From Gammaproteobacteria bacterium (GTDB lineage Bacteria; Pseudomonadota; Gammaproteobacteria; JAADJB01): a stretch of 62,862 nucleotides of DNA. Shown one piece after another: positions 16,870 to 60,116 of this stretch. Position 1 is the stretch's first letter. Every line of letters begins with the position of its first letter. A program made the translations under genes and the position numbers. The notes under the pieces are model-generated. The model searched no databases and was not told where the DNA came from. It worked only from the letters and a program-made list of their open reading frames with translations. Where the stretch lies: the NCBI GenBank assembly GCA_013151035.1, contig JAADJB010000018.1, positions 1 to 62,862 on the forward strand. The letters are read 5' to 3'.

Positions 16870-16912
16870 AGCAAGAGGCTGTAATAATATGATATTCATC
16901 GAAAAAAATATG

Positions 16913-17056
16913 TCTGGTAAGTTCGAGACAGGGATTGCTCCTTTCTATCAGAGACACGCCGTGAAACCATCCATGGTGGCTCCATGCCCGCGTCCATGCG
17001 GGCAAGGGTCTCTGATAGAAAGGAGCAATTCCTGTCTCTTGAGTTAATGGGGCAGA
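16913..17056. repeat. nested-palindrome MITE-like element, copy A
   Basis: Outer arms ggtaagttcgagac / gtctcttgagttaa, 31-bp inner inverted repeats (gagacagggattgctcctttctatcagagac / gtctctgatagaaaggagcaattcctgtctc), and a conserved core ..gtgaaaccatcc.tggtggctccatgcccgcgtccatgcgggcaaggg. Confidence 0.8.
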
Positions 17057-33310: not shown

Positions 33311-34669
33311 CTACCGTGGTTTCTTTATCATCGCTTGAATCATAACGATCAGGAATAACAGGCCGCCGATGATTGCAATTAAACCACCCAGCCCCATCAT
33401 GGCCATACCGGCTATTTCGGGTAGTTGATCCAGGCCTTGTGCAGCACCGGCGGTCTTGCGTTGCACGCCGTAACCACCCGACCAGGCAAGCCCGAGGATA
33501 TGCATCAGTTGACCACCGCCATAGACGTAGGGTTGTATGCGCGCCAGTTTGGTATCGGGTGCGCTGAAGCCCAGTTTGGGTAATAACAGGTAGCCGAGTC
33601 CCATGAAGGCGAGGGTGATGCCTACGATAGAGCCATGATAGTGGGCGGGGATAACGACATTGATACCGTGGATCATAAAGGCGAGAACACCGCCGGTGGC
33701 AAATAACAGAACGGAGCAGATGAGGGCGTTTCTAATCGGACGCTGTGCACCGCTGGCCTTGTCTGCACGCAGTAAATAGTAAGCAATGATCAGACCAAGT
33801 GGCAGGCTGGTCAGTCCGCCCCAACGCATGAGTTCGGTGTAATTGATGCGGTGTTCCAGGCTATAGGTCTCACTGCCGAGTGAGATCGGGATGGCAATAA
33901 AGGCAGGTAGCAGACACAGTGCCAGTAATAAACGGGTTGTCTTTGGCGCGATGTTTAACGGGACTCCACTGCCTTGACTGATCCATAACCAGGCCACCAG
34001 CATCATCAGGCTGTGGGTGAATTGCAGCACATGGCCGCTTCCCCAGAACAGGTATTCAAAATAGGTTTTGCCGATCAGGTCGCTAGGCAGGGTGAGGTAT
34101 GAGTAAATGAAGATCAGTAATGCGATGAGGGTGGTCAGTGATGCACTGCGGATGCCAAATTGCAGGGCTTGAGAGGCGGTATAGGTTGTGCTACGCGGTG
34201 TCGTTGTGTGCAATAAAACGGGTATCAGTTGTAGTGCAATGCCGCTGATAAATAGACCTAGGCCAAGTAGAAACAGGGGTTGTTGCAGGATCGGGATATA
34301 GTTATTGAGTAGAGGTTGTGCTTCGCCAGTAAACGGCGCGATGATAATGGCGCTGGTACCGAGGATCGCCAGGCTTAGAGCTACCTTTTCTAATGTGGGT
34401 GCATATTGTGCCTGTTGTATACTCCATAGCAGGGCGGCAAAGGACAGGAACCAGATCAATACCGAGAGATCAACATGAACAATCAGTGCGGTATGAAAAA
34501 AATCAGTCCAGGGGATGATGTCCTGTATCCCTGGGGTACGGGAAAGCACCAGCAATAAGGAAAACAGACCCGCTGCAACCAGGGCGACCAGTCCCAGGTT
34601 AAGCCAGATAATGGGTCGTTTTTGCTGTGCCGGGGATAGCTCGGGCAGGGTATAGTCGTTTGGGTTCAT
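33311..34669 (-). CDS. polytopic membrane protein (~12 TM) with heme-copper-oxidase subunit-I-like motifs and an incomplete binuclear-site His set
   Basis: LFWGSGH (HCO helix-VI W-x3-H pattern), PAHYHGS (H-x-H as in HFHYV), and only one His where the HH pair is expected. Confidence 0.5.
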   Translation of the reverse strand: MNPNDYTLPELSPAQQKRPIIWLNLGLVALVAAGLFSLLLVLSRTPGIQDIIPWTDFFHTALIVHVDLSVLIWFLSFAALLWSIQQAQYAPTLEKVALSLAILGTSAIIIAPFTGEAQPLLNNYIPILQQPLFLLGLGLFISGIALQLIPVLLHTTTPRSTTYTASQALQFGIRSASLTTLIALLIFIYSYLTLPSDLIGKTYFEYLFWGSGHVLQFTHSLMMLVAWLWISQGSGVPLNIAPKTTRLLLALCLLPAFIAIPISLGSETYSLEHRINYTELMRWGGLTSLPLGLIIAYYLLRADKASGAQRPIRNALICSVLLFATGGVLAFMIHGINVVIPAHYHGSIVGITLAFMGLGYLLLPKLGFSAPDTKLARIQPYVYGGGQLMHILGLAWSGGYGVQRKTAGAAQGLDQLPEIAGMAMMGLGGLIAIIGGLLFLIVMIQAMIKKPR

Positions 34670-34717: not shown

Positions 34718-35587
34718 TTATATCGTAATCTGGAGCTTGAGCTTATTCATCGCGTTCTTTTCCAGTTGGCGAATACGTTCAGCGGATACCCCGAAGCGTG
34801 TTGCAAGGTCTTGCAGAGTGGTCTTTTTCTCGCCTAACCAGCGTTGCTGCAAGATGATCTGACTACGTTCATCCAGTTGTTTCATGGCGCGATAGAGCTG
34901 TTGTTTGTCTTGATCCTCGGTATCCTGAAGTTCAATCTCCAGTGCCGGATCGGTACGCTGATCCTGTAGATAACTGGCGGGGGCTGAGAATGATGCCTGT
35001 TCGTCATCCTCCTCGTTGCGTAGATCAAAGCCGATATCGGTGCCGCTAAGGCGTTTTTCCATCTCCAGTACGACTTCGGGTTTTACGCCTAGTTCCTCGG
35101 CAACGGTATTGACCTCTGCGTGACTGAACCAGCCCAGACGTTTCTTGGCAGAACGCAGGTTAAAGAATAATTTGCGTTGAGCCTTGGTGGTAGCAATCTT
35201 TACGATGCGCCAGTTCTTGAGGATAAATTCATGGATCTCGGAGCGAATCCAGTGCACGGCAAAGGATACCAGACGCACGCCAACATTGGGGTCAAAGCGT
35301 TTAACAGCCTTCATCAGACCTACGTTACCTTCTTGAATCAGGTCACCTAAGGGTAGGCCATAGCCGTTATAACCGCGCGCAATATGGATAACAAAACGTA
35401 GATGAGACAAAACCATTTTTCGCGCCGCATCAATATCGCCATGATTAAACAGGCGCCACGCCAAATCCTGTTCTTCCTCTGCACTCAGCATGTCGATACG
35501 ACTGGCTGTCTGCATATAACCACTCAGATTGCCATTGGGGATTAACATGGCAAAGTCTTGATTTTTAATGGCTAATTCATTACTCAT
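34718..35587 (-). CDS. rpoH: RNA polymerase sigma-32 (heat-shock sigma factor)
   Basis: 289 aa. ..[25 protein letters not shown].. and the RpoH box ..QRKLFFNLR... Confidence 0.95.
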
Positions 35588-35910
35588 GGCAATGGCTCAC
35601 TCCGTTTAATATCTATAATAAGTTGTATTTTAGCACTCTAACAGTATGAGTGCCAAGTGGGTATTAAGTTCCTGTTAATGTGGGAATACCTTTTCCTCTG
35701 GATTGTTGTGCCTGTTGCGCACCAAATTAGTACAATTTATATGCGGGTTTGAATTTGCTGCCTTCTTATAGTGCGGGCCTGCTAGCAGAGAGTTTCATAC
35801 CCTTTTGATTAATAAGCTTTTATGCTTATGGCATAGATTGTGCTAGAGGTTTTAAGGATAAGTAAAAAAATACATTTCTATCTTCTTGAAATCAGGGTTA
35901 AGGGTGCGTC

Positions 35911-37251
35911 ATGAGTAACAGCTTGCTACGGGGTTTTGCCTCGATTATTTTGCTAGCCATTTTTAATATTATTTTTCTTCGGGCAGTCGTTGCGGCTGAT
36001 GATGTCCCCAGACCTATTGTCCACTACCCTGAACGTGGTGTGGCGATGACAGAAAAATGGAAGGTGGTAAAGGATGGCTATAGCAATCCTAAGAAATACA
36101 TTCCGCCTATTATCGAGGGCGCAGGTAAGGATTGCGTCAAGTGTCACAAGGTGTTGACACCTGTTGCGGTGAAGGATTGGGAAGAAAGCAGGCATTATGA
36201 GAAGGGTGTCGGCTGCGAAAGCTGTCATAACGATCACAGCAACCTTATTATGCCGACCCCTGATACCTGTGGAACCTGTCATGCCTCCGAGACTATGCAG
36301 CATCGTGCAGGTAAACATTCTATCGCCTGGAGTATCAAGGTAGCATCGGGTGGTAAAGGTGGCGGTGCGGGTCGTTTCCTTGCCCAGTATGAAGAAATGA
36401 AAGAGGCCAGTTGTGGTGGTTGCCACAGTGTCGAAGATAAGTGTGATTCCTGTCATTCTCGTCACAAGTTTAATCCTAAAGAGGCACTTGAGCCGGCTGC
36501 CTGTGGCACTTGTCATATGGGGCCGGATCATGCGCAGCTGGATTATTATGAATCGTCAAAACACGGTGTCATTTTTGATATAGAAGGTAAGGGGTTTGAA
36601 GAGGGTGGTCGCGCGCCGACTTGTGTCACCTGCCACATGAAGGCCGGTAATCATGATGTCAGTCAGGGTCTGACCTTAGGTGGTGCCTCACAGGGCAAGT
36701 TTATCGGTAAGAAGGATACCGGTGCGGGATACAGCAAAAACCCTAATGGTATCTTGATGAATGAGATTACCGTAGGAACATTCAAACGTGAACGTGCCAA
36801 GATGGTCTCTATCTGTATGAACTGTCATTCACAGCGTTTTGCCGAACATAAGCTATCGGTTGCGGATGGTATCAAAATTGCCAGTGATGCTGTTGCGGGT
36901 GAGGCTATCAAAGTGATTAAATCACTTCATAGTGATGGCTTGTTGAATCCGATGCCGGAGGATAGACCAGAGAATCCATTCGTGGGTAAGAAATTGATGC
37001 TGACCGGGCATCAGCTTTATGAGCAGACATCCGGTATCGAGGCGCTGTTTTTTGAGTTGTATAAGTTTGATCTAGTCCATGCCTGGAAAGGAGCCTATCA
37101 CTTTAGCCCGGATTGGACGCACTGGTATGGTAATGCGCCAATGAAACTGAAGCTGTCCAGGATAAAGAACGAGGCAAACCAGTTGCGGCGCCTGGATAAG
37201 CTGGAAAAAGAGCTGGGTATTGAAGCAGAAAAGGTCGATTTCGGCGAGTAA
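35911..37251 (+). CDS. HAO-family octahaem cytochrome c (hydroxylamine-oxidoreductase-like, reductive type: no cross-link Tyr)
   Basis: Signal peptide and eight CxxCH motifs. Segments PTPDTCGTCH, KCDSCHSRHKF, PAACGTCHMGPDH..SKHG, APTCVTCHM and CMNCHSQRFA closely resemble Nitrosomonas HAO as recalled. Confidence 0.85.
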   Translation: MSNSLLRGFASIILLAIFNIIFLRAVVAADDVPRPIVHYPERGVAMTEKWKVVKDGYSNPKKYIPPIIEGAGKDCVKCHKVLTPVAVKDWEESRHYEKGVGCESCHNDHSNLIMPTPDTCGTCHASETMQHRAGKHSIAWSIKVASGGKGGGAGRFLAQYEEMKEASCGGCHSVEDKCDSCHSRHKFNPKEALEPAACGTCHMGPDHAQLDYYESSKHGVIFDIEGKGFEEGGRAPTCVTCHMKAGNHDVSQGLTLGGASQGKFIGKKDTGAGYSKNPNGILMNEITVGTFKRERAKMVSICMNCHSQRFAEHKLSVADGIKIASDAVAGEAIKVIKSLHSDGLLNPMPEDRPENPFVGKKLMLTGHQLYEQTSGIEALFFELYKFDLVHAWKGAYHFSPDWTHWYGNAPMKLKLSRIKNEANQLRRLDKLEKELGIEAEKVDFGE

Positions 37252-37257
37252 TTACGC

Positions 37258-37899
37258 ATGAGACTTATCGTAATGTTTTTATTCCTGTTGACCGCCAGCC
37301 TGACAGTGCAGGCTAAGGGGCTGCCGCGTGCGGAGAGTTGTGGTAGTTGCCATGTATCAAACTTTGATACCTGGGAGTCCTCTGCGCATGCTGACTCTAT
37401 TAGTCGCCAGGGCTTTCGCAGTTGTCTGGAAGACTATCTGGAAAAAGAAAGGACGAACAGTGGTGCCTATTGTTTTGACTGCCATGCGCCTGGTGAGGTG
37501 ATTAGTGGTGATGTCTTTGCGGCCACTAATGATGTCATGAAAGGTAAGTTGTATCGTGATGGTGTGACCTGTGTGGCTTGTCATAGTGTGGAGTCTATTC
37601 AAGACGGCAAGGCGATTTATGATCCGGGTGGCATTAACGGTTATCACAGTGTGAAGGATCTCAAGTCTGTTGATAGAGAGGCATTATGTTTGACTTGTCA
37701 TAGTCGCTATCAATCCACTCGCCCGGTGACGGAAGAAACGGCTCCTGGATTTTTTGAGAATCTTTATGCGGGTTTAAGTGGTGTGGTGAGCACAAAAAAC
37801 AAAACTATAACCGATCATCGCTTCGTTGAGTCGGTGGTAGAGAATGAAGGGCACTGGGAATGTAAATCGGGATCGCTGTTAGAAGAGGGACATCAATAA
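37258..37899 (+). CDS. tetrahaem cytochrome c, c554-like
   Basis: Signal peptide and four CxxCH motifs. N-terminal CGSCH..W.SSAHA resembles c554 (CSSCH..W..TAHA). About 210 aa. Confidence 0.7.
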   Translation: MRLIVMFLFLLTASLTVQAKGLPRAESCGSCHVSNFDTWESSAHADSISRQGFRSCLEDYLEKERTNSGAYCFDCHAPGEVISGDVFAATNDVMKGKLYRDGVTCVACHSVESIQDGKAIYDPGGINGYHSVKDLKSVDREALCLTCHSRYQSTRPVTEETAPGFFENLYAGLSGVVSTKNKTITDHRFVESVVENEGHWECKSGSLLEEGHQ

Positions 37900-39545
37900 T
37901 GTTACGTGGTATCTTTATACTACTGACCAGTCTGTGCTTATCAGTGGCATTCCTTACGACGGCACAAGCCGCAGGTTATGCTGCCAGTGCAAACATTGAT
38001 AGTGCCAAAAAAGAGGGCGCAGCCGACTGTAAGTCGTGTCACGAAGAAACTAAAAAACCTGAAAGATATGAGTCGGCCAGATCCTGGCTAAAGAGTCGTC
38101 ATGCGGCGGAGGGTGTAAGCTGTGTTGATTGTCATCTGAAACAGGATGTTAAGGGTCAGGACTTTTACACAGCGGTTACTACAGAGAGTCGGCAAGAGGC
38201 ACATGCCGCCATGGTGGCTGACCCTGATAATAAGGAAAACAAGGCCTACTTTATAGAGGTCTGTGGTAGTTGTCATCAAGATAGATTAACGGAATTTAAT
38301 GCCAGCGTTCATGGCGTAGCAAACAGCAAGAGTGAGACCACAGCGGTGAGTTGTGTGGATTGCCATGACCCTCATTTGGCACCCCTGGTGACCAGCAAGG
38401 CATCGAAGATCTACCGGGGTAATGATACCAATACCTGTGGTCGATGCCATAAGGATGCCCTCGGCTCCTACATGAAGACCTTCCACGGCAAGCAATTTCA
38501 TTTAGGGAATACCCTGGCTCCGACCTGTATCTATTGTCATCGAGGTCATGAAGTACCCACCGATTCCCCTGCCTCGTTTATTCATGCCGATAATATTGGT
38601 GGTCTATGTGCCGGTTGTCATGGTGATGCCATTAATGCCGGTGCCGGTGCTGATGCCCTGCTGATACAAAATTTAAGCGGTGATTCCACGCGTAAGGTGA
38701 CTCATTTCCGTGATCCGGTAACGGCCGGGCCTTTCTCGGTTGCCTCCATGATTGATTCGACCTATCTGGCGATGATTATTGGTATTGTCGGGTTTTTCAC
38801 CTTGCTTTCCACACGCGATTATATGAAAAAGACCCAGGCGGGTGCCTCCAGTAGTGAGGATGATAATAAACCGAGTGTGAAACGCTTCTCTATCTCCTGG
38901 CGTTTACAGCATTTCTTCTGGGCTTTGTCATTTATTCTTCTGGCAGCAACGGGTCTCTCGCTTAAATTCCCTGAGTCAGTGCTTTCTGAGGCAGTGGTGT
39001 GGATGTCAGGTGGTGAAGAACTGCGTTCTATTATTCACCGCATTGCCGCGATTGTCTTTATGCTGTTGGCGGCTATTCATCTATTGCCCTATCTGCTCAA
39101 GTTGAAACCACCGGGTAAGATATTCCTTAGCAAAAAAGATTTTATTGATGCCTTTTTGCACACTAGTTATCTGTTTGGCAGAGCCGATAAAATGCCGTTG
39201 ATGTACCGTTATGCCTGGTATCAGAAGGTGGAATACTGGGCGACAGTGATCGGTGGTTTCATTGTTATATCAACCGGGCTATTGATGTGGAATTTCTCTC
39301 CACTGGCAAGCTGGATTCCAGTTGAATTTGTTTTTTATGCGCAGTTGATACACGGTTGGGAGGCAATCCTGGCGGTGCTGGTCATCTTTGTGCAGCATTT
39401 CTATCATGTGTTCCTGAATCCTGATGTGTTCCCGATGGATACCTCATGGTTAACCGGCAAGACCAAGTACAAGGTGATGAAGCATGATCATCCGCTTGAA
39501 TTGATGGAGATAGAATCAAAAAAGGAGAAAGCCGATGAGGATTAA
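37899..39545 (+). CDS. heptahaem cytochrome c fused to a C-terminal FdnI/HyaC-type dihaem cytochrome b membrane domain (CbcL-like quinone-reactive subunit)
   Basis: Seven CxxCH motifs in the periplasmic part. Five TM helices follow, with RLQHFFW, AAIHLL, LIHGWEA and VQHFYH His patterns typical of Ni_hydr_CYTB/FdnI cytochrome b. Confidence 0.8.
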   Translation: MLRGIFILLTSLCLSVAFLTTAQAAGYAASANIDSAKKEGAADCKSCHEETKKPERYESARSWLKSRHAAEGVSCVDCHLKQDVKGQDFYTAVTTESRQEAHAAMVADPDNKENKAYFIEVCGSCHQDRLTEFNASVHGVANSKSETTAVSCVDCHDPHLAPLVTSKASKIYRGNDTNTCGRCHKDALGSYMKTFHGKQFHLGNTLAPTCIYCHRGHEVPTDSPASFIHADNIGGLCAGCHGDAINAGAGADALLIQNLSGDSTRKVTHFRDPVTAGPFSVASMIDSTYLAMIIGIVGFFTLLSTRDYMKKTQAGASSSEDDNKPSVKRFSISWRLQHFFWALSFILLAATGLSLKFPESVLSEAVVWMSGGEELRSIIHRIAAIVFMLLAAIHLLPYLLKLKPPGKIFLSKKDFIDAFLHTSYLFGRADKMPLMYRYAWYQKVEYWATVIGGFIVISTGLLMWNFSPLASWIPVEFVFYAQLIHGWEAILAVLVIFVQHFYHVFLNPDVFPMDTSWLTGKTKYKVMKHDHPLELMEIESKKEKADED

Positions 39546-40074
39546 TCGGTTGTCTCTATTGATGTTGGTGATGGGGCTTGCTTCGTTACTGTTGGCACCT
39601 GCTCAGGCGAGTGATGAAAGCTGTATTAGCTGCCATTTACACAGCGAATTGAGTCAGGACTTTGCTGCGCCATTACATGATATCAAAACGCTGGCCGGAT
39701 TCCATGGCTATGTATTCAAACAAAGAGGGTCTGATGCCGATTGTCAGGTCTGCCATGAATCAGGTCAGACCAAGGGCGAACTCCCATCGGCACAGGTCTG
39801 CCTGACGTGTCACACCCGAGGCAAGTCGACACAGGGTGATCCTGATACGGTCTTTCATGCCGAAGAGAATCACTGGCCGATGGAAAAGGTGTCGTGTACC
39901 ACCTGCCATAAAGGTCACGTTGCCGGTAACAGGATAATTAAATTTATGACGGGTGATGCGATCAATGCCTGTCAGCAATGTCACAAGAAAAGTTTTAAGA
40001 CAATATCCGGTTTGGATAAAAGCGGTGAGCCGGCAACAGTGAATGAACCGGACAACCGTTATGGGCAAAATTAA
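39535..40074 (+). CDS. pentahaem cytochrome c, NrfB-like
   Basis: Signal peptide and five CxxCH motifs in about 179 aa. Confidence 0.7.
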   Translation: MRINRLSLLMLVMGLASLLLAPAQASDESCISCHLHSELSQDFAAPLHDIKTLAGFHGYVFKQRGSDADCQVCHESGQTKGELPSAQVCLTCHTRGKSTQGDPDTVFHAEENHWPMEKVSCTTCHKGHVAGNRIIKFMTGDAINACQQCHKKSFKTISGLDKSGEPATVNEPDNRYGQN

Positions 40075-40092
40075 GACAAGAGGTTATTGATA

Positions 40093-41394
40093 ATGAGTGC
40101 TACTGAGAATATGGCTGTTTTTGCAGTATCGCTGGATACTGTGTGGGTGATTATTGCGGCTGTTCTGGTCTTTATGATGAATGCCGGGTTTGGCATGTTG
40201 GAGGCGGGGCTTTGTCGGGCAAAGAATACGGTGAACATCTTTGCCAAGAACATTGTTATCTTTGCCATTGCCGGTTTGAGTTTCTGGCTGGTGGGCTTTG
40301 GTTTGATGTTTGGTGATGGTAATTCACTGATGGGGATGACCGGCTGGATGTTATCCGGTGTCGATAATAGCCCGGCGGTGGGTGACTATTATTATGGTGA
40401 TTATACTTCTCTTAGTTGGGCGGCCTTACCCCTGTATGCCAAGGTTCTATTTCAACTGATGTTTGTTGCTGCCTCAGCGCATATTGTCTCCGGTGCGGTA
40501 ACCGAGCGCATCAAGTTTTTCTCATTTATTGCCTTCTCTATAGTATTGGTTGCCATTATTTATCCGGTTGTTGGTCACTGGGCATGGGGTGGTGGTTGGT
40601 TGTCTGATCTGGGTTTTATTGATTTTGCCGGTAGTTCGGTGGTGCATTCTGTTGGTGGCTGGGCGGCACTAACAGGAACGATTATTCTGGGTGCGCGGGC
40701 AGGTAAATTTACCCGTGATGGCAGGGTGTCACCTATTCCGGGGCATAACCTGGCGATGGCGGCATTGGGCATGTTCCTGTTGTGGTTCGGTTGGTTTGGT
40801 TTTAATGCGGGCAGTGCAATGACAGCATCAAGTGGCGAGCTGATTGCCACAGTGGCACTCAACACAACGCTGGCGGCGGCAGCGGGTGTAATCAGTGCCT
40901 TGATTGCTGCCGAGGTGCTTATTGGTAAACCGGATATGAGTATGATTCTTAATGGTGCATTGGGTGGCCTGGTGGCGATTACAGCGGGTTGTGCCGAGGT
41001 TAGCACCAGTGGTGCCGTCATTATCGGACTTGTCTCCGGTGTGTTGGTGGTCTACTTTATTATGTTACTCGATAGACGGCGTATTGATGATCCTGTTGGT
41101 GCGGTGCCGGTGCATCTTGTCAACGGTATCTGGGGCACATTGGCTGTTGGTTTATTTAGCCTGAGTGAAGGCTTCTTTTATACCGGGGAGTTGTCATTGT
41201 TGACGACTCAGTTGATCGGGGTTGCTGCGATTGCGGTCTTTGCCGGGGGTGGTAGTTATCTTGTCTGGCACCTGGTCAGTCTGCTTTTGGGTGGCTTGCG
41301 TGTGAGTCAGGAAGAAGAACACATTGGTCTTGATATCAGTGAGCATGGTATGGAGGCCTATCCTAGTAGTTCAGGCCCCAGGGCTCTTTATTAA
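40093..41394 (+). CDS. amt: ammonium transporter (Amt family)
   Basis: 11 TM helices. Amt motifs ..DFAGSSVVHSVGGWAAL.. and twin-His region ..GLFS.. Confidence 0.9.
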   Translation: MSATENMAVFAVSLDTVWVIIAAVLVFMMNAGFGMLEAGLCRAKNTVNIFAKNIVIFAIAGLSFWLVGFGLMFGDGNSLMGMTGWMLSGVDNSPAVGDYYYGDYTSLSWAALPLYAKVLFQLMFVAASAHIVSGAVTERIKFFSFIAFSIVLVAIIYPVVGHWAWGGGWLSDLGFIDFAGSSVVHSVGGWAALTGTIILGARAGKFTRDGRVSPIPGHNLAMAALGMFLLWFGWFGFNAGSAMTASSGELIATVALNTTLAAAAGVISALIAAEVLIGKPDMSMILNGALGGLVAITAGCAEVSTSGAVIIGLVSGVLVVYFIMLLDRRRIDDPVGAVPVHLVNGIWGTLAVGLFSLSEGFFYTGELSLLTTQLIGVAAIAVFAGGGSYLVWHLVSLLLGGLRVSQEEEHIGLDISEHGMEAYPSSSGPRALY

Positions 41395-41417
41395 GCGGAT
41401 TTGGATGGAGAATTAAA

Positions 41418-42077
41418 ATGGGCTGGTTAATATTCTTTTTTTGCTGGATCTTGTTTCTTTGGCTTTATCACCATAGTGAGAAGAATAAGCAACTTCGTGC
41501 ACAGTCAATGCAAACGGAGAAGCATGTCGATTATGGTTCGGTAAAACGTGACTTTGATGAAAGCATGAAGTCATTTAATGATAGCGAGGGCTTCAAGGCG
41601 CGTTTGGCACATATTGATCGCGCCATTGGTCATCTTGAACAAATGGAAGAGATGCTGCCGGGGAAGGATTCAGCCTCCCAGCTATCTGAATTACTGTCAT
41701 TGAAACGGGGGCTCACGCATTCCGGTATCAAGGGACGGTTTCAGGAGTCTATGCGTAAGGCGCGCGAGACCACGAGTACCATTGCCAAGGTTAATCATGC
41801 CACCTCTGCACAGGCGATCCTGAGCGAAGGACTGGATATGGGTATTGATAAAGAGTTGTTGAGCGAAGAGATCGAAGAGGCGAATGACTTTATCAACCAG
41901 TTGCAATATGACGAGTATCTCGCCAAGGCAAGCAAGGAAGAGGCAAAGGGTAATACGAAAGGTGCCATTGATCAGTATCAGGTGGCACTGTACTTCCTGA
42001 AGATGGCGCATATAGGCAGTGAAAAGCAGGATGCGCTGGTGAATGAAATCGAGAGTAAGCTACAGAGTCTTTCCTGA
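41418..42077 (+). CDS. hypothetical protein with one N-terminal TM anchor and a helical soluble domain
   Basis: MGWLIFFFCWILFLWLY hydrophobic anchor; the rest is charged and helical. Confidence 0.45.
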   Translation: MGWLIFFFCWILFLWLYHHSEKNKQLRAQSMQTEKHVDYGSVKRDFDESMKSFNDSEGFKARLAHIDRAIGHLEQMEEMLPGKDSASQLSELLSLKRGLTHSGIKGRFQESMRKARETTSTIAKVNHATSAQAILSEGLDMGIDKELLSEEIEEANDFINQLQYDEYLAKASKEEAKGNTKGAIDQYQVALYFLKMAHIGSEKQDALVNEIESKLQSLS

Positions 42078-42147
42078 TCGGGGGCCCTGGGTGATATTTT
42101 TAAATGAAAAATAAAACAACGTATTAGTAATAAAAGTGGAGACAATC

Positions 42148-43590
42148 ATGGAAACCAATGAAACACGGGGCAAAATGAATAATTTTGGTGAGACGATGAA
42201 ACAGACCGGTCTTGCAAAGCCGACAGTATTGGGTGGTTTGTTTGCTGCCCTGTTATTTGCCGGTGCAATAGGCGGGCTGCTGGAAACCAATGAAGCGGGT
42301 ACTATTACGGTCAAACAGTCTGCGATGACGGGGGCAGTGGATATTATTTCCAAGCCGGGTTTGTTTTGTCAGTGTCTTGGTTCGGTGACAAAATATCCTG
42401 AGGCGGGTACCGTCAAGTTTGCCCAGGCCGATCAAATAAAAGGGCCTAATGGCACCATGATCGAGCGACCGGGCCGGAGTAAGGAGAAAGATCCTTCCCT
42501 ATCCAGTGAGATCGAGGTACGATTTAATGATGGTGGTCTGGGCTGGATCTCGGTGATGACAATGTTTGATCTACCAGCTGATCGAAGCAAATTAAGACTT
42601 GTTCACAAGAAGTTTCGGGATTATAACAATCTGCTTGAGATGGGTGTCAAACCGACTATTGAAGAGTCTGTAGTATTAACGGCTGCCTTGATGAATTCGG
42701 GTGAGTCGTATACCACTAAACGAGCCATCTTCTCTGAATGGGCCAAGGATCAATTGACTCAGGGTACTTATATGACAGAAGAGGTTGCTCGTTCTGATCA
42801 GGGTACATTGGGTGGTGCGATGGAAAACAATGTTGTCAGGGTTAAGGTAAAGGATGGTGCAAAACTGAGAAACGAGGACCCTCTAGCACGTTACGGGATC
42901 AAGTTTAAACAGTTCCAGATTACCAATATTCGTTATGAGGCAGAGACCGAGAGTCTTATCAAGATCAAGCGTAATGCACTGCAACAGACCATCGTAGCCA
43001 GGATCGCAGCAGAGCGTGCCAAGCAGGAACGTCTGGCGGCTGAAGAGTTTGGTAAGAAGAAGGTCAAGATTGCTGAATATGAAGGCATGGTAAAGAAGAA
43101 AAAGGCCGAGGTTGCAGCGGAAGAAGAAAAGAGTGTTGCTATCATCAATGCCGAACGTAAGTTGGCAGTGGCCAAGGTAATGAAGCAGAAGGATCTGGGT
43201 GCGGCTAATAAAAAGGTTGCGCTGGCGAAACTGGAAAAGGAAAAGGCCATTATTACTGCTGATAAGGGTGTTAAGGTTGCCAAGTTAAATGTTGATGCCG
43301 CGAAGTATAATAAGCGGGCTCAAATCCTTGAGGGTGAAGGCGTGAGTGAGCAAAGACGGCTCATCTACAAGGCTGATGGCGCGCTGGAACAGAAGCTGGA
43401 TGCCTACGTGAAGGTGATGACGGTATTGTCCAAGGAACTGGGCAAGCAGAAATGGGTGCCTGATATTGTTATGAATGGTAGTGGTAATGGTGGTGCTGAT
43501 CAGGGTAATGCGGCTGCTGGGTTTATGAACCTGTGGATGATGAAGGCAGCGAAGGATCTTGATGTTGAGCTGACGGCTAAGAAGAAGTAA
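42148..43590 (+). CDS. SPFH/band-7 domain protein, flotillin-like (YqiK-like), with a long Ala/Lys/Glu-rich coiled-coil
   Basis: N-terminal membrane segment, SPFH-like core and an EA/KA-rich repeat region. Start taken at the ATG with an upstream GGAG. Confidence 0.65.
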   Translation: METNETRGKMNNFGETMKQTGLAKPTVLGGLFAALLFAGAIGGLLETNEAGTITVKQSAMTGAVDIISKPGLFCQCLGSVTKYPEAGTVKFAQADQIKGPNGTMIERPGRSKEKDPSLSSEIEVRFNDGGLGWISVMTMFDLPADRSKLRLVHKKFRDYNNLLEMGVKPTIEESVVLTAALMNSGESYTTKRAIFSEWAKDQLTQGTYMTEEVARSDQGTLGGAMENNVVRVKVKDGAKLRNEDPLARYGIKFKQFQITNIRYEAETESLIKIKRNALQQTIVARIAAERAKQERLAAEEFGKKKVKIAEYEGMVKKKKAEVAAEEEKSVAIINAERKLAVAKVMKQKDLGAANKKVALAKLEKEKAIITADKGVKVAKLNVDAAKYNKRAQILEGEGVSEQRRLIYKADGALEQKLDAYVKVMTVLSKELGKQKWVPDIVMNGSGNGGADQGNAAAGFMNLWMMKAAKDLDVELTAKKK

Positions 43591-43615
43591 TTTTCTTTAT
43601 TACTGTTGTTAGTGA

Positions 43616-43646
43616 AGATGCCCGCATAAGCGGGCATTTTTTATTT
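43616..43646 (+). terminator. rho-independent terminator
   Basis: atgcccgc ataa gcgggcat followed by tttttt. Confidence 0.65.
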
Positions 43647-43663
43647 GCTTGAGAAAATATAGG

Positions 43664-43853
43664 TCTGGTAAGTTCGAGACCGGGGCTGGCTCCTCTCTAT
43701 CAGAGACACGCCGTGAATACATCCTCGGCAATTGCTCCTGCATTGCTCTACCTACCTACATCCATGTAGGCGTGTAGGCTCCACGCCCGCGTCCATGCGG
43801 GCAAGGGTCTCTGATAGAGAGGAGTCACCCCCGGTCTCTTGAGTTAACGGAAC
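43664..43853. repeat. MITE-like element, copy C (carries an extra ~60-bp internal insert)
   Basis: Outer arms ggtaagttcgagac/gtctcttgagttaacgg, a 32-bp inner inverted repeat, and the conserved core ccacgcccgcgtccatgcgggcaagggtctctgatag. Confidence 0.8.
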
Positions 43854-43906
43854 CTGGGGACTGACCTTTCTCGTTCCCATGCTCCCGCGTGGGAATGCAT
43901 AGCAAG

Positions 43907-44869
43907 TCAACGCGGCTGTATGCGATGAAGATGCTGGGCTACAGCAATCCAGGCTCCGATCAAACCCAATAGCGTCCCCAGACCCAACAGCGCCAGTCCC
44001 CAGCTCAGACTCATGCCGGAGAGTTGAAAGGCGCTGTGATAGAGCTCAGTCAGTGCTTGTACGGGTGTACTGAGTAACCAGAAGCTGATGCCGATCATGA
44101 TCCAGGCGAGTAGTGCCCCGAGTAGACCATACCAGAGCCCGGTGTAGAGAAACGGGCGACGAATAAAGGCGTTGGTGGCACCGATCAGTTGAGTGATCTC
44201 GATCTCTTCATGGCGACTCTGAATCTCCAGGCGGATGATGTTGCCGGTGACCAGCAATACTGCAAGCCCCAACAAGCTACCAATAATAAGAATAATGCGC
44301 TCAAAAATAGCCAATATTGCCGACAGGCGTTTGACCCATTCCAGATCCAGTTGTGCCAGATCAACCTCGGGGCGTTGTTGTAGTCGTTGCAACAGGGACT
44401 GGCTTAGATAGCGATCAAGATCACCGGGTTGTAGTACCAGTACCGTGGGTAGAGGATTTTTATTCAGTTGCTGAATGAGATTGCCAAGGCCGGGGTATTG
44501 TTGAAATTCTTCCAGTGCCTGTTGTTTGGTGATAATCCTGACCTGTTCGATCTCCGGCCATGAATGAATCTCGCCAGCCAGTTTTCTAGCCTGTTGTTCG
44601 GTGACGGTTTGTTTCAGAAATAGTGAGATGCTGGTGGCACCATCCCAGTTAATCTGTGCCTGTTTCAGATTGTCGAGCAGGATCAGCATGGCACCGGGCA
44701 GGGCAAGGGTGATGGCAATAACGGCAATGGTCAATAGACTGGCGATAGGTTTTAGCCAGAGTCGACCGAGGCTGCTAATGAGTGTTTGGGCATGACGCAG
44801 TAGATAGTTGCGTAATATGTCTTTAAGGCTACGCACGGGTTTACGAGTAGAGGGCTTCTTTTTTTTCAT
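43907..44869 (-). CDS. ftsX: cell-division ABC transporter permease FtsX
   Basis: About 320 aa: N-terminal cytoplasmic segment, periplasmic loop, C-terminal 3-TM bundle. Overlaps the ftsE stop. Confidence 0.9.
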   Translation of the reverse strand: MKKKKPSTRKPVRSLKDILRNYLLRHAQTLISSLGRLWLKPIASLLTIAVIAITLALPGAMLILLDNLKQAQINWDGATSISLFLKQTVTEQQARKLAGEIHSWPEIEQVRIITKQQALEEFQQYPGLGNLIQQLNKNPLPTVLVLQPGDLDRYLSQSLLQRLQQRPEVDLAQLDLEWVKRLSAILAIFERIILIIGSLLGLAVLLVTGNIIRLEIQSRHEEIEITQLIGATNAFIRRPFLYTGLWYGLLGALLAWIMIGISFWLLSTPVQALTELYHSAFQLSGMSLSWGLALLGLGTLLGLIGAWIAVAQHLHRIQPR

Positions 44870-45540
44870 GGAATAAAGCGATCCTCAGGATGAATAAGCT
44901 GCCCCTGATCCAAGGTTAATATGTTGTGATGCATCTGTGCGATCAGGGCGAGATCGTGGGATGCGATCAGGGTCGTCACACCCACCTGGGAGAATTGTTC
45001 GAATAAACCCATGATCTCGCGCGATAGTTCAGGATCAAGATTACCGGTAGGCTCATCAGCAATCAGGATGCGGGGCTTGTGTACCACGGCACGGGCAATA
45101 CCCACTCGTTGTTGCTCACCACCCGACAGGCTGATGGGTTGTTTACGCTCCTTATCCAATAGACCCACCTTGTCCAGTGCGGCGCGTACTCGGCGTGCAA
45201 TATCCTGATGTCGGAAGCCTGCGATAATCAGGGGCAGAGCCACATTATCAAATACCGTGCGATCCATTAACAGGCGATGATTCTGAAATATGATGCCGAT
45301 CTTACGCCTTAGGTAAGGGATCTTGCGTGCAGGGATGCGACTAAGGTTATCACCATCAACAATCAATTGTCCGCGTGTGGGGCGATCGAGCAGGGCGATG
45401 AGGCGTAATAGTGTGCTTTTACCGGCACCTGAGTGGCCGGTTAGAAAACTGAGGCTACCCTTATCCAGAAACAGGTTGATCCCGCTCAGAGCCTCGGGGC
45501 CATTATTATAGCGTTTGCATATGTTGGAAAAGCGGATCAT
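44866..45540 (-). CDS. ftsE: cell-division ATP-binding protein FtsE
   Basis: Walker [19 protein letters not shown] signature, [12 protein letters not shown]. Confidence 0.95.
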
Positions 45541-46532
45541 TCCTGTTCAAAGAGTGCCTGAATGAATTCATCAGCATGAAACTCACGTAGATCCTCGATG
45601 GCTTCACCGACACCAATAAAACGAATAGGGATGCTCAGGCGTTCCGCAATAGCGAAGATGACACCACCCTTGGCAGTGCCATCCAGTTTGGTAATGGTGA
45701 TCCCGGTGAGTCCCATAGCCGCATGGAATTGAGTGGCCTGATTGATGGCATTTTGACCCGTACCCGCATCCAGCACCAACATCACCTCATGGGGTGCATT
45801 GGCATCCAGCTTCTGTAACACACGCTTGAGTTTTTTCAGTTCTTCCATCAGGTTCGATTGGGTATGTAGACGACCCGCAGTATCCGCGATCAGGATATCG
45901 ATGTTTTTAGACTGTGCCGATTGCAGGGCATCGTAGAGCACCGATGCCGAATCAGCTCCCTGATGTTGAGCCACCACCGGGATGTCATTGCGTTCGCCCC
46001 AGCTCTGTAGTTGTTCCACCGCAGCTGCCCGAAAGGTATCACCGGCAGCCAGCATCACGCTTTTACCCTGATCCTGGAAACGGCGCGCCAGCTTGCCAAT
46101 GGTGGTGGTCTTGCCAGCGCCATTAATCCCGATCATTAACAGGACAAAGGTACCATTGCTGGTGTCGATATTCAGAGGTATCGTGCAGGGTGTGAGGATC
46201 GCCTGCATATCCTCACGCAGGGCAGACATTAAGCTGTCGGCATCCTTGAGTTGTTTGCGTGCAACGCGTTGGGTCAGATCCTTGAGGATGCGCTGGGTTG
46301 CTTCAATACCAATATCCGCAACCAGTAATTGAGTCTCAAGATCCTCCAGTAGTTCATCGTCAATCTCCTTGTGACCCAGCACAAGGTTAGATATGCCCTC
46401 AACCAGCCCGCTACGGGTTTTGGATAGCCCGTCCCGCAAGCGACCAAAAAGGCCTTTTTTGGGCTTTTCTGGCTCTGTACTTGGTGTTACAGCCGTCTCT
46501 TCAGGGTCTTTTTTACGCTTGAAGCCAAACAT
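45537..46532 (-). CDS. ftsY: signal-recognition-particle receptor FtsY
   Basis: NG domain GINGAGKTTTIGKLA, DTAGR, TKLDGTAKGG. Confidence 0.9.
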   Translation of the reverse strand: MFGFKRKKDPEETAVTPSTEPEKPKKGLFGRLRDGLSKTRSGLVEGISNLVLGHKEIDDELLEDLETQLLVADIGIEATQRILKDLTQRVARKQLKDADSLMSALREDMQAILTPCTIPLNIDTSNGTFVLLMIGINGAGKTTTIGKLARRFQDQGKSVMLAAGDTFRAAAVEQLQSWGERNDIPVVAQHQGADSASVLYDALQSAQSKNIDILIADTAGRLHTQSNLMEELKKLKRVLQKLDANAPHEVMLVLDAGTGQNAINQATQFHAAMGLTGITITKLDGTAKGGVIFAIAERLSIPIRFIGVGEAIEDLREFHADEFIQALFEQE

Positions 46533-46749
46533 GGAAACTCTAACCTGTCGTTGAAGTAATGGTAGCTATGATAACAGCAAGTATCTTTATAATATATCCA
46601 CCTGCCATGCTTGTTTTTCTTTGGGCTTAACTAAGAATCAGTAAAAATAATTTGACCTGAATCTGGATTAACTTAATGTGTTAAAATAAAGCGTACAAAG
46701 GCACACTAGTATTAAGTTGAAATGTAACAAAAACAAGGGGAATCCTTAC

Positions 46750-47154
46750 ATGAATCAATACCGTTGGGTATCAATTTTTATTCTTATCTTATCTACAAAT
46801 GTATATTCATATCAATCTAAAGTTGAAATTGTAGAGCAATTTGATGATTTAAAGATGGTCGCATTTATAAGCAAAGAATATATTAATAACAGTCCTGAAT
46901 GGATTCCAGGTAAAACAGCTCTTCCTTTGACTGTTGCCGATGCTATTAAAGCGGTCAATGATTTTAACAAAGATGAAAATAAAGTAGATGTTATAAGTGA
47001 AATAGAAATAAGAAAAATACCAAAACATAAGAAACACTGGCACTATTTAATTAAAGTTGCTAACAAGGCCATGAAATTAAAATATAATATTTATGTGGTA
47101 TTAATGAGTGGTAAGGTTGTTCCAGCAATGATTCAACCACAATCTTATAAATGA
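46750..47154 (+). CDS. hypothetical secreted protein (AT-rich)
   Basis: Signal-peptide-like N-terminus. Followed by a strong terminator. Confidence 0.4.
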   Translation: MNQYRWVSIFILILSTNVYSYQSKVEIVEQFDDLKMVAFISKEYINNSPEWIPGKTALPLTVADAIKAVNDFNKDENKVDVISEIEIRKIPKHKKHWHYLIKVANKAMKLKYNIYVVLMSGKVVPAMIQPQSYK

Positions 47155-47165
47155 CCGGTTATAAA

Positions 47166-47207
47166 AAGGGGACGGAGGGATTAAATAATCCTCTGTCCCT
47201 TTTTTTT
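47166..47207 (+). terminator. rho-independent terminator
   Basis: gggacggaggg ... ccctctgtccc followed by tttttttt. Confidence 0.65.
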
Positions 47208-47226
47208 AAAACACAGGGTATTTTAA

Positions 47227-47658
47227 ATGGATTACGAGAAGCGCGAAGAAAATCGCGAAGAGATAAGAAAAGCCAACGAATGCTTGTTAATGGAGTTTGA
47301 AGCGTGGCTAAAATCATCAGGTCTGTCGGAAAAGACGATAAATAATCATGTTTCGAATATTGATTTCTACGTAAACGACTATCTGTTGTACGATGATATA
47401 ACTGAGGCAAAAGATGGTGCATCCTCTGTAAGCATGTTTCTTGGATATTGGTTCATAAAAAAGGCGATGTGGGCAAGTCGGTCAACTATTAAGGGCAACG
47501 CAACAAGTCTCAAAAAGTTTTATACCTTTATGCATGAGAAGAAGCAGATAGATAAAGAAGACCTTAGTGACTTAAAAGAAGTGATAAAAGAAGATATGTC
47601 TGAATGGTTAGCAAGCTTGGAACGCTATGATGATCCATCAGTTGAGGAAGTTTGGTGA
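47227..47658 (+). CDS. hypothetical protein resembling a tyrosine-recombinase N-terminal SAM-like (core-binding) domain; probable orphan fragment
   Basis: ..FEAWLKSSGLSEKTINNHVSNIDFYVNDYL.. resembles integrase CB domains. No catalytic domain follows. Confidence 0.35.
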   Translation: MDYEKREENREEIRKANECLLMEFEAWLKSSGLSEKTINNHVSNIDFYVNDYLLYDDITEAKDGASSVSMFLGYWFIKKAMWASRSTIKGNATSLKKFYTFMHEKKQIDKEDLSDLKEVIKEDMSEWLASLERYDDPSVEEVW

Positions 47659-47877
47659 TGTGGCGTATGACATGGGGCTGGTTACAATCATCGCAATAAT
47701 TATTGTATGAGTTTCTATGAAAGCTAAAACATTTAGGTGTTACACGTCAATCTATTATAAAAGTTTGGTTGGCGGAGCGCTTAGAAAAAATAGCGTCTAA
47801 ATAACTGGCGACTGTATGTGGTAGGGACGATGAGTTTTATAAAATTAATTAACACCAATCAGGATGTTGGAAATATG

Positions 47878-48090
47878 ATGATAAATATAGGTCGATTGAT
47901 AGTGTTTTCAGCCATTGTTTCGGGTATTGGCTGTTCCAGTGGGGAAGACAAGGTGGCTCCGGAAAAAACGGTCAGTGAACCTGTTTTTCAAGGTCAGATT
48001 CAGGCGCTTGAAAAAGCAAAAGAGCTTGAGTTGATGATTAAAAATGAAGCAGAGAAGCGTCGTCAGGCGATAAAAGAAGGTAGTAATTAA
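47878..48090 (+). CDS. small putative lipoprotein
   Basis: Signal peptide plus ..SGIGCSS lipobox-like motif. Confidence 0.35.
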   Translation: MINIGRLIVFSAIVSGIGCSSGEDKVAPEKTVSEPVFQGQIQALEKAKELELMIKNEAEKRRQAIKEGSN

Positions 48091-48198
48091 GCTTCTGGCG
48101 GTTGTGATATGCGTGTAGTGCATAGTGGTAGCAGGGAACTTCTGATTATTCGGGTGTCATTACTATTTCATGGGTATTTTTTACTAAGGTGATATTGA

Positions 48199-58298: not shown

Positions 58299-58617
58299 CA
58301 GGGTTATAAATATAATGATCAGTATTTGTTTAAGCTTTATGATGATCTCGCTTTAATCGTTTTATGTTGTCATGGTTCGTATAGGGAGTATAACCCACTC
58401 ATTCATCGCATGAAAATAGCCATGAAATTACCCTTGCACCAGAATGAGTGATATAAGGGTGTTCTAATGTAATAGCGCACCCGGCTTGTGCATACATCTT
58501 ATTTTTAAGGTATTAAAACCTTATTTATATTATTGTATTCAATATGTTGCGATATTGGCACAGGCATTGCATGAGGTTGGGTATATCGTGAAGACTTGAG
58601 TTTACAGGAACAAGAAG

Positions 58618-60093: not shown

Positions 60094-60116
60094 GTTGCTT
60101 AGTATATAATCAAGCA

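Follow-up and report, generated by a model that had tools for sequence, protein, structure and literature searches.

The window analyzed here is the whole of contig JAADJB010000018.1 (62,862 bp, locus tags GXP22_) from the Gammaproteobacteria bacterium assembly GCA_013151035.1, and our subject is a block of seven intact plus-strand open reading frames (ORFs) at 35911-43590, between rpoH and ftsX, both on the minus strand. The block encodes an octahaem protein of the HAO family, three further multihaem cytochromes, an Amt-family ammonium transporter and two membrane proteins. A preliminary description of the same DNA had placed seven plus-strand genes between ftsX and rpoH, and the ORFs, the Pfam matches and the counts of CxxCH motifs (8, 4, 7 and 5) agree with it. 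The components of the block are the following:

35911..37251, plus strand: octahaem HAO-family protein of the His (putatively reductive) type, with a Sec signal peptide (446 aa, 8 CxxCH, PF13447)
37258..37899, plus strand: periplasmic tetrahaem cytochrome c (213 aa, 4 CxxCH)
37899..39545, plus strand: heptahaem cytochrome c fused to an FdnI/HyaC-type dihaem cytochrome b (548 aa, 7 CxxCH, C-terminal PF01292)
39535..40074, plus strand: pentahaem cytochrome c with a signal peptide or anchor (179 aa, 5 CxxCH)
40087..41394, plus strand: Amt-family ammonium transporter (PF00909, E=4e-118), with no adjacent glnK
41418..42077, plus strand: apparently module-specific membrane-anchored protein with an MIT-like helical domain (219 aa, N-terminal transmembrane helix)
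42136..43590, plus strand: SPFH (prohibitin/HflK/flotillin-fold) membrane protein with a long C-terminal coiled coil (484 aa, PF01145)
43614..43641, plus strand: rho-independent terminator closing the putative operon (12-bp stem with 6 GC pairs, T tail)

The intervals between the genes are short (6, -1, -11, 12, 23 and 58 nt from the first to the last), and the only strong terminator in the block is the one that follows the seventh gene. We therefore read the block as a single operon, predicted to yield one transcript.

The same genes recur elsewhere in a fixed order: HAO, tetrahaem, heptahaem/cytochrome b, pentahaem, Amt, 219-aa protein and SPFH protein follow each other in at least ten other contigs. 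The complete order is present in the loci that we designate L001, L002, L004, L007, L011, L014, L119/L120, L121 and L122, and in L123, whose contig begins inside the block and lacks hao, it can be followed from the heptahaem gene onwards. The hosts are metagenome-assembled genomes (MAGs) of Gammaproteobacteria, Acidiferrobacteraceae and Chromatiales on the one side and of Deltaproteobacteria/Thermodesulfobacteriota on the other, and come from vent sediments and groundwater. HAO identity among the module loci is 68-90%, and the flanking genes differ in every instance. At the nucleotide level, positions 35897-43579 are colinear with L001 (76.7% identity over 7.8 kb), L007 (Acidiferrobacteraceae HyVt-429, 75%) and L014 (72%), with no homology to these three loci beyond the block edges. 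Neither rpoH nor ftsX was found within 10 kb of the block in any of the other block-carrying loci.

The haem counts of 8/4/7/5 and the signal peptides are conserved across loci, and there are no internal stops. Compared with L001, dN/dS is 0.03-0.14 for six of the genes, at saturated dS, and the tetrahaem gene gives no dS estimate. These values indicate strong purifying selection on the six genes. HAO homologues at 56-60% identity have other partners and lack the Amt, 219-aa and SPFH genes. That the whole set is conserved across phyla while its flanks vary speaks for a functional link between all seven genes and for spread by horizontal transfer. The position of amt behind the cytochromes, which could have been incidental, thus looks meaningful, since Amt is co-conserved with them across two phyla. 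At one groundwater site, loci L003/L010 and L004 encode identical HAO proteins, and L003/L010 lack the 219-aa gene; their amt and SPFH regions match by tblastn but are not called as intact genes. The module of L003/L010 may be a decaying copy or an assembly variant.

The HAO-family protein belongs to its family by a clear margin (PF13447, 113 bits against a cutoff of 21.9, E=1.9e-32). Its best solved matches are KsHOX (4n4j) and the close homologue 6t5e, followed by HAOr/Kustc0458, KsHDH and NeHAO (E=1e-48 to 1e-34). In HMMER and MAFFT alignments, Tyr467 of NeHAO (GWTYTEG) and the corresponding Tyr of KsHDH (ATYSDG) fall on His404 of the window protein, in the motif DWTHWYGNAPM; the loop of KsHOX aligns ambiguously around the cross-link Tyr. 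The pair His404-Trp405 is invariant in an alignment of 25 sequences (A1, down to ~40% identity). Across the family sequences His404 is kept in 31 out of 31 and Trp405 in all of these except P0054, and Tyr406, two residues past His404, is Phe or His in several homologues. An oxidative P460-type HAO, HOX or HDH was rejected as an assignment, as the invariant His404 stands in place of the cross-linking Tyr.

The residue that forms the Tyr-haem cross-link is thus absent, and for this reason the window HAO is predicted to be of the reductive type and should work reductively. The cross-link-free Kustc0458/7 complex of Ferousi et al. reduces nitrite, nitric oxide (NO) and hydroxylamine and does not oxidise hydroxylamine (PMC8042395), and a 2025 evolutionary study regards His at the key site as the ancestral reductive state (PMC12758564). 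The reductive reading offered in the preliminary description therefore fits the sequence. In a rough neighbour-joining (NJ) tree, which is midpoint-rooted, unbootstrapped and without epsilon-Hao and hence indicative only, the four solved HAO types lie together, outside a large His-type radiation that holds the window protein along with homologues from Methanoperedens, Nitrospirota, Thermoleophilia and Desulfuromonadales. In this rough tree the protein falls apart from the NeHAO/HOX/HDH group. No epsilonproteobacterial source appears among the few annotated entries of the best 120 HAO matches.

The distal Asp-His pair of the HAO family, which is catalytic, is represented by D206 and H207 in the motif CHMGPDH, after the sixth haem motif. 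The pair is invariant in 25 homologues and aligns to GIDH in KsHOX, GPDH in kustc0458 and GVDH in NeHAO. Because of this invariance the window HAO looks catalytically competent.

Electrons would be supplied by the three other cytochromes. The fusion protein consists of a signal peptide, seven c-haem motifs, a linker transmembrane helix and a four-helix domain that makes up its C-terminal third. This last domain matches PF01292 (56.2 bits, cutoff 30.1) and FdnI (1kqf_C, E=5e-6) and has invariant transmembrane His residues at H338, H380/H394, H485 and H500, in the pattern of one in helix 1, one in helix 2 and two in helix 4. It fits two b haems and a predicted quinol/quinone site. The total of 24 c-haems and 2 b-haems given in the preliminary description fits the 24 CxxCH motifs counted and these His residues. 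A chain from quinol to the periplasm is plausibly self-contained within the block.

Two names given earlier to these cytochromes had to be dropped. The tetrahaem protein is not c554-like, scoring 15.9 bits with the Nitrosomonas c554 model NF043010 (cutoff 400), and no c554 chain occurs among its PDB matches; its match to PF13435 (40.7 bits) is to a generic multihaem model. The pentahaem protein is not NrfB-like either, with 21.5 bits against 184 for NF008659, 17.7 against 166.6 for TIGR03146 and 21.6 against 27 for PF22678, and the PDB sequence matches rule out the same label. The fusion was also rejected as an Fdn subunit, as the formate dehydrogenase gamma equivalog scores 54.5, below its cutoff of 115.85. 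No NCBIfam model names any of the four cytochromes.

The Amt protein passes the general transporter model (TIGR00836, 412 bits, cutoff 343.3) and fails the AmtB equivalog (210 against 657). It retains the pore-region motifs VVHSVGGW, VPVHLVNG and LWFGWFGFNAGS in alignments to 8qj3 and 6eu6, and we take their His and Phe/Trp residues to be the twin-His and the Phe gate of AmtB. Among solved structures, 8qj3/8qpf and 6eu6 match it best (E ~1e-76 to 1e-71), and AmtB comes after them (1e-54).

The last two genes are more than loose additions to the block. A set of 5.8 billion proteins contains only 27 homologues of the 219-aa protein, none below 53% identity, and the gene lies in this block in every case examined; a positive-inside pattern places the MIT-like domain in the cytoplasm. 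The SPFH protein, whose gene starts four codons later in the NCBI annotation, where it is called TolA, matches PF01145 weakly (31.8 bits, cutoff 23.6) and shows the alpha/beta domain followed by a coiled-coil helix. It forms a module-specific clade at 53% identity or more, with the next relatives at 35-38%. Both proteins appear to be specific to this module. The next SPFH relatives (L124 and L125) lie in phage-like regions of contigs of 174-283 kb, beside genes for an HNH endonuclease, a dNMP kinase and NAD synthesis, with no Amt or cytochrome neighbours. We also considered a role of the two genes in a defence system, for which PADLOC returned only noise.

Upstream of hao we found three elements that resemble a promoter of the nitrogen-limitation type:

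35718..35734, plus strand: NtrC-type enhancer box 1, CGCACCAAATTAGTACA (11 of the 14 specified consensus positions)
35759..35775, plus strand: NtrC-type enhancer box 2, TGCCTTCTTATAGTGCG, degenerate (8 of 14)
35829..35844, plus strand: sigma-54 -24/-12 promoter-like element, TGGCATAGATTGTGCT, 66 nt upstream of the hao ATG

The promoter-like element has GG at -24 and GC at -12 with 10-nt spacing, and the boxes upstream follow the NtrC consensus TGCACCAnnnTGGTGCA (PMC8743547). Since the sigma-54 pattern has a background of 15 matches per 2 x 62.8 kb of the window, about one per 8 kb per strand, a single match is weak and it is positional conservation that carries weight. In a five-way alignment of the upstream regions (58% mean identity), the invariant columns cluster on the sigma-54 element and the NtrC boxes. 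The sigma-54 element is found at the aligned position in L001, L006, L007/L119, L008 and L121, and the NtrC boxes, 60-110 nt upstream of it, reach 12 of 14 positions in L006, L007 and L008. The columns GCACCA...CAATT of box 1 are invariant in the alignment with L001, L006, L007 and L008. The column of box 2 is near-consensus in relatives (TGCACCCTCATGGTGCG in L008, TGCACCCTCATAGTGCA in L006 and TGCATCTTTATGGTGCA in L007/L119), and L007 carries a second NtrC box, TGCACCAGGCTGGCTCA. The element TGGCA-N6-TGC is conserved in gamma- and delta-type loci; of the latter, L002, L003 and L122 have near-perfect sigma-54 elements that lie farther upstream.

This predicted NtrC/sigma-54 control points to induction by nitrogen limitation, and therefore favours an assimilatory over a respiratory role. 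The preliminary description had left the choice between the two undecided; its reductive chemistry fits the sequence, and the conserved promoter now tips the choice towards assimilation.

In delta-type operons, 200-400 nt separate the sigma-54 element from hao (L003 1-226, L004 1-130, L011 ~9550-10000), and within this leader a strong terminator-like hairpin, ACGCCTTATTCCC...GGGAATAAGGCGTTTTTTTT, suggests an attenuator or an unknown riboswitch. Rfam at gathering score returned no riboswitch or leader RNA in the window, L002, L003, L011 or L122.

A second gene on the contig has a similar upstream region. It encodes a NarK-family nitrate/nitrite transporter of the major facilitator superfamily (58618-60093; TIGR00886, 334 bits, cutoff 312) and is preceded by a perfect sigma-54 element, TGGCACAGGCATTGCA (58556-58571), by a GCGCACCCGGCTTGTGCA box of the GCGCACC type and by NtrC-like boxes at ~58434 and 58475-58492. 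The NarK locus (58434-61817) is a candidate for a second member of a nitrogen-limitation regulon on the contig. After the NarK gene, positions 60117-61817 encode a fusion of a PP2C phosphatase and a Ser-Thr kinase.

Taken together, we propose that the block is a nitrogen-limitation-induced operon that uses quinol to reduce nitrite, NO or hydroxylamine in the periplasm and imports the product through Amt, and we give this reading a probability of about 50%. Under nitrogen scarcity, NtrC would activate the operon through the sigma-54 promoter. The fusion would oxidise quinol at its FdnI-type dihaem cytochrome b domain, and electrons would pass from the b haems over 16 c-haems (the seven of the fusion, the pentahaem and the tetrahaem protein) to a periplasmic HAO trimer. 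Nitrite, and perhaps also NO or hydroxylamine, would be converted by HAO to ammonium or hydroxylamine, and Amt, predicted to come from the same transcript, would then import this product for assimilation. For the MIT-like and SPFH proteins, a role as scaffold or gate of the membrane-bound part seems probable. We infer the direction of electron flow, the substrate, the product, the regulation and the scaffold role from sequence. If so, the operon suggests an undescribed route from nitrite or hydroxylamine to usable ammonium outside the cytoplasm.

Several observations weigh against this proposal. In the window itself, box 2 of the promoter is degenerate and the -12 element reads GTGCT rather than TTGCA. 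The NarK gene with its similar promoter hints at cytoplasmic assimilation of nitrate or nitrite, in which case the module would be non-essential for nitrite assimilation. The nearest structures of Amt, 8qj3/8qpf and 6eu6, are presumably sensor-type Amt proteins, and if they are, the Amt of the block could sense ammonium instead of transporting it. Because FdnI acts as a quinone reductase in formate dehydrogenase-N, a cytochrome b domain of this kind is compatible with electron flow either way; our direction is taken from the type of HAO. Finally, an ammonium product is not guaranteed by the type of enzyme, since HAOr makes NO in vivo.

The alternative that survives best, unlikely in our view, is that the block is a respiratory (dissimilatory) module. 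HAO would then be a terminal nitrite reductase, either ammonifying, in a manner like dissimilatory nitrate reduction to ammonium, or forming NO like HAOr and feeding a denitrification that ends in Nos, and Amt would travel along for convenience or serve to dispose of or recapture the product. The contig does carry nosR, nosZ, nosD and further nos genes, as well as genes for the RuBisCO large subunit, CbbQ, a CbbO-like protein and CbbR, and the source organism looks like an autotrophic denitrifier type. Moreover, HAOr reduces nitrite to NO (PMC8042395), HAO homologues at 56% identity adjoin a Rieske/cytochrome b complex (L005), and respiratory systems typically have haem chains of this kind (24 haems here) with a quinol dehydrogenase of their own. 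However, the conserved sigma-54/NtrC-type promoter predicts control by nitrogen limitation and not by anaerobiosis or N-oxides, and upstream of hao there are only poor matches to an FNR-type box. The strict co-conservation of Amt and the two membrane proteins with the cytochromes is also hard to explain if ammonium is irrelevant.

Our own proposal can be taken further, to a seven-protein membrane metabolon in which an SPFH ring and its MIT-like partner surround a specialised Amt together with the cytochrome b fusion, and the product of HAO is channelled. The N-species formed by HAO, possibly hydroxylamine in place of ammonium, as in the reverse-HURM model, would be handed directly to Amt without escaping into the periplasm. 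We consider this elaboration rather unlikely; if true, it would be an unrecognised, horizontally mobile and nitrogen-starvation-induced route for the assimilation of periplasmic N-oxides. A related idea, a periplasmic SPFH cage enclosing HAO, was set aside as speculation, as the domain of the MIT-like partner is predicted to be cytoplasmic and the sequence of the SPFH protein gives no clear topology.

Detoxification or scavenging, in which hydroxylamine or NO is converted to ammonium and assimilation is a by-product, seems to us improbable. It would suit the kinetics of HAOr and epsilon-Hao, which in vitro are faster on NO and hydroxylamine than on nitrite according to PMC8042395, and a denitrifier-type autotroph would generate NO in the periplasm. 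Yet we found no NorR- or NsrR-type control of the block, and the enhancer boxes match NtrC. This explanation also overlaps heavily with the assimilatory operon that we favour, from which it differs mainly in the physiological substrate.

Still less probable is an ammonium-sensing unit, in which Amt, the MIT-like and the SPFH protein would respond to external ammonium by switching the cytochrome chain, and Amt would not be the uptake route. The ranking of presumably sensor-type structures ahead of AmtB among the matches of Amt speaks for it, but the protein has no fused signalling domain, keeps the pore-region His and Phe/Trp motifs and passes the general transporter model. Although the order of HAO, small tetrahaem protein and membrane quinone-reactive cytochrome mirrors haoA-cycA-cycB and FdnI works as a quinone reductase, an oxidative module of the hydroxylamine-ubiquinone redox module (HURM) kind, with HAO oxidising hydroxylamine, hydrazine or other reduced nitrogen and the cytochrome b domain reducing quinone in a redox loop, is highly improbable given the invariant His at the Tyr position, the place of the protein in the rough tree, its 137 bits with the hydrazine dehydrogenase model NF052343 (cutoff 900), a nitrogen-limitation control that contradicts the use of reduced nitrogen as fuel, and the lack of amo or hzs genes linked to the block in any locus.

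The assimilatory operon that we propose resembles several known systems in part. One of them is the reverse-HURM pathway of Nautilia profundicola, where a Tyr-less HAO and CycB reduce nitrite and AmtB-type uptake is proposed, with unlinked genes (PMC2628731, PMC3701875). Both here and in the reverse-HURM/epsilon-Hao systems of Campylobacterota, a periplasmic HAO without the cross-linking Tyr would receive quinol electrons, reduce nitrite and be linked to nitrogen assimilation, and the inward transport of the product by an AmtB-type protein is step C of that model (PMC3701875). The electron donor differs, being a NapC/NrfH-type tetrahaem CycB in reverse-HURM and the heptahaem-FdnI fusion with a pentahaem and a tetrahaem protein in the window. 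With the NrfH model TIGR03153 the scores are 25.3 and 28.4 bits (cutoff 134), and with the NapC/NirT model 20.8 (cutoff 310); because an NrfH-type partner is absent, the module is not reverse-HURM by composition. Nor does it correspond to the HAOr/dihaem complex of anammox bacteria or to HAO-c554-cM552 of ammonia oxidisers. Moreover, hao, cycB and amtB are unlinked there, whereas here the counterparts share one predicted operon with two extra membrane proteins.

Anammox HAOr (Kustc0458/0457; PDB 6h5l) likewise has the HAO fold without the Tyr cross-link and the same CHMGPDH motif, and its C-terminal SWWWGQAPM resembles THWYGNAPM of the window protein. It acts reductively on nitrite, NO and hydroxylamine (PMC8042395), as we propose for the window HAO. 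However, HAOr reaches only ~143 bits in comparison with the window HAO and groups with the other solved HAOs in the NJ tree. It has Trp at the key column where the window protein has His, it is located in the anammoxosome and lacks the Amt linkage, and its partner is a dihaem cytochrome c in place of three multihaem proteins.

The HAO-c554-cM552 system of ammonia-oxidising bacteria (haoA-haoB-cycA-cycB) shares with the block an octahaem HAO, a small tetrahaem protein and a membrane quinone-reactive cytochrome. The window lacks the cross-linking Tyr, c554 and haoB, the cytochrome b fusion replaces cM552, and the predicted electron flow is opposite. In architecture the fusion can be likened to CbcL of Geobacter, a multihaem c domain with nine c-haems fused to a HydC/FdnI dihaem cytochrome b. 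Both have a periplasmic multihaem c domain followed by a four-helix FdnI/HyaC cytochrome b with conserved His ligands, but the fusion has seven c-haems and its context is an N-cycle enzyme and Amt rather than extracellular electron transfer.

The next-closest clade of HAO proteins, at 56-60% identity, recalls the anammox HAO-Rieske/cytochrome b (R/b) complexes in being wired to a quinol-oxidising membrane complex. In L005 (GCA_020724035.1, DYHS01000007.1), the 56%-identity HAO homologue is fused to a monohaem cytochrome c and lies directly downstream of Rieske/cytochrome b-type genes, with separate genes for an FdnI-type cytochrome b and multihaem proteins on the opposite strand. This layout resembles the anammox R/b-HAO, yet occurs outside anammox bacteria. 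In contrast to the window, the membrane complex of L005 is bc-type and the Amt, MIT-like and SPFH genes are absent.

Full-text literature searches found no published description of this gene arrangement, in line with the preliminary description, which knew of no described system with the arrangement it called haoA-cycA-cbcL-nrfB-amt. What appears to be new is the conserved seven-gene module with a His-type HAO and a sigma-54/NtrC-type promoter; the proposed chemistry resembles that already put forward for reverse-HURM. Reductive HAO-type enzymes are widespread in genomes and their physiological roles are mostly guesses. Reverse-HURM is the only pathway model that couples such an HAO to nitrogen assimilation, and it rests on unlinked genes and expression correlations. 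The operon described here genetically ties a reductive-type HAO, a quinol-to-periplasm haem wire, Amt and a nitrogen-starvation-type promoter in two distant lineages, and this linkage makes the coupling of HAO and Amt directly testable with a compact 7.7-kb construct. If our model is true, periplasmic assimilation of nitrite, NO or hydroxylamine in sulfur-oxidising, groundwater or vent bacteria has been missed by annotation pipelines, and the inference of nitrogen retention versus loss from metagenomes would change. The operon would also offer a bacterial case of SPFH and MIT-like proteins dedicated to a transporter/redox complex.

The surroundings of the block bear on how it came to its position. 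The flanking features are the following:

34718..35587, minus strand: rpoH, left flank (ORF list and Pfam)
43662..43860, no strand assigned: repeat resembling a miniature inverted-repeat transposable element (MITE), with 32-nt terminal inverted arms, adjoining the block outside the conserved unit
43907..46532, minus strand: ftsX-ftsE-ftsY, right flank (ORF list and Pfam)

In a scan of metagenomes for FtsX, which yielded 33 loci, all distant relatives (FtsX at 50% identity or less), 25 have rpoH on the strand of ftsX and ~100-1750 nt downstream of it, and at least two lack rpoH despite 8 kb or more of sequence downstream of ftsX. This agrees with the earlier statement that ftsYEX and rpoH are normally contiguous. 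Since rpoH directly follows ftsX in most of these loci, the contiguous arrangement is ancestral for this part of Proteobacteria and the 8.3-kb gap in the window derived. The block was also said to be inserted, and its occurrence elsewhere in relatives, rather than at this position in all of them, is consistent with that. Within the ~130 bp that separate it from the block, rpoH keeps a sigma-70-like promoter (35627-35656).

We looked for hallmarks of a mobile element and rejected them for the block: its base composition (GC 0.46-0.50) is the same as that of the flanks, and neither integrase or transposase genes at the edges nor a repeat common to both edges were found. The terminator and the MITE copy reported for the right edge are both real. 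The arms of the MITE-like repeat (43676-43707 and 43807-43838) are 94% complementary, and a second, shorter copy lies at about 16905-17050, relative to which the copy at the block edge has an additional internal segment of ~46 nt. The terminal inverted repeats of the element read GTCTGGTAAGTTCGAGAC...GTCTCTTGAGTTAA. As the repeat adjoins one edge only and has a copy elsewhere, it is no evidence that the block moved with it.

Other features of the contig lie further from the block. Just past ftsY, at 46600-48100, the GC content drops to 0.33-0.40 (~0.50 in its flanks) and there are small ORFs, one of which (47227-47658) contains only the N-terminal SAM-like domain of a phage integrase; this stretch looks like a mobile-element remnant beside the fts cluster. 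The left end of the contig holds a truncated integrase-core (rve) ORF at 143-724. Adjoining rpoH, on the minus strand at 33311-34669, is a gene for a 452-aa polytopic membrane protein with no NCBIfam match and no other oxidase subunits nearby, which by its weak match to PF00115 (haem-copper oxidase subunit I, E=3e-12) may be an unusual NOR/oxidase-like protein.

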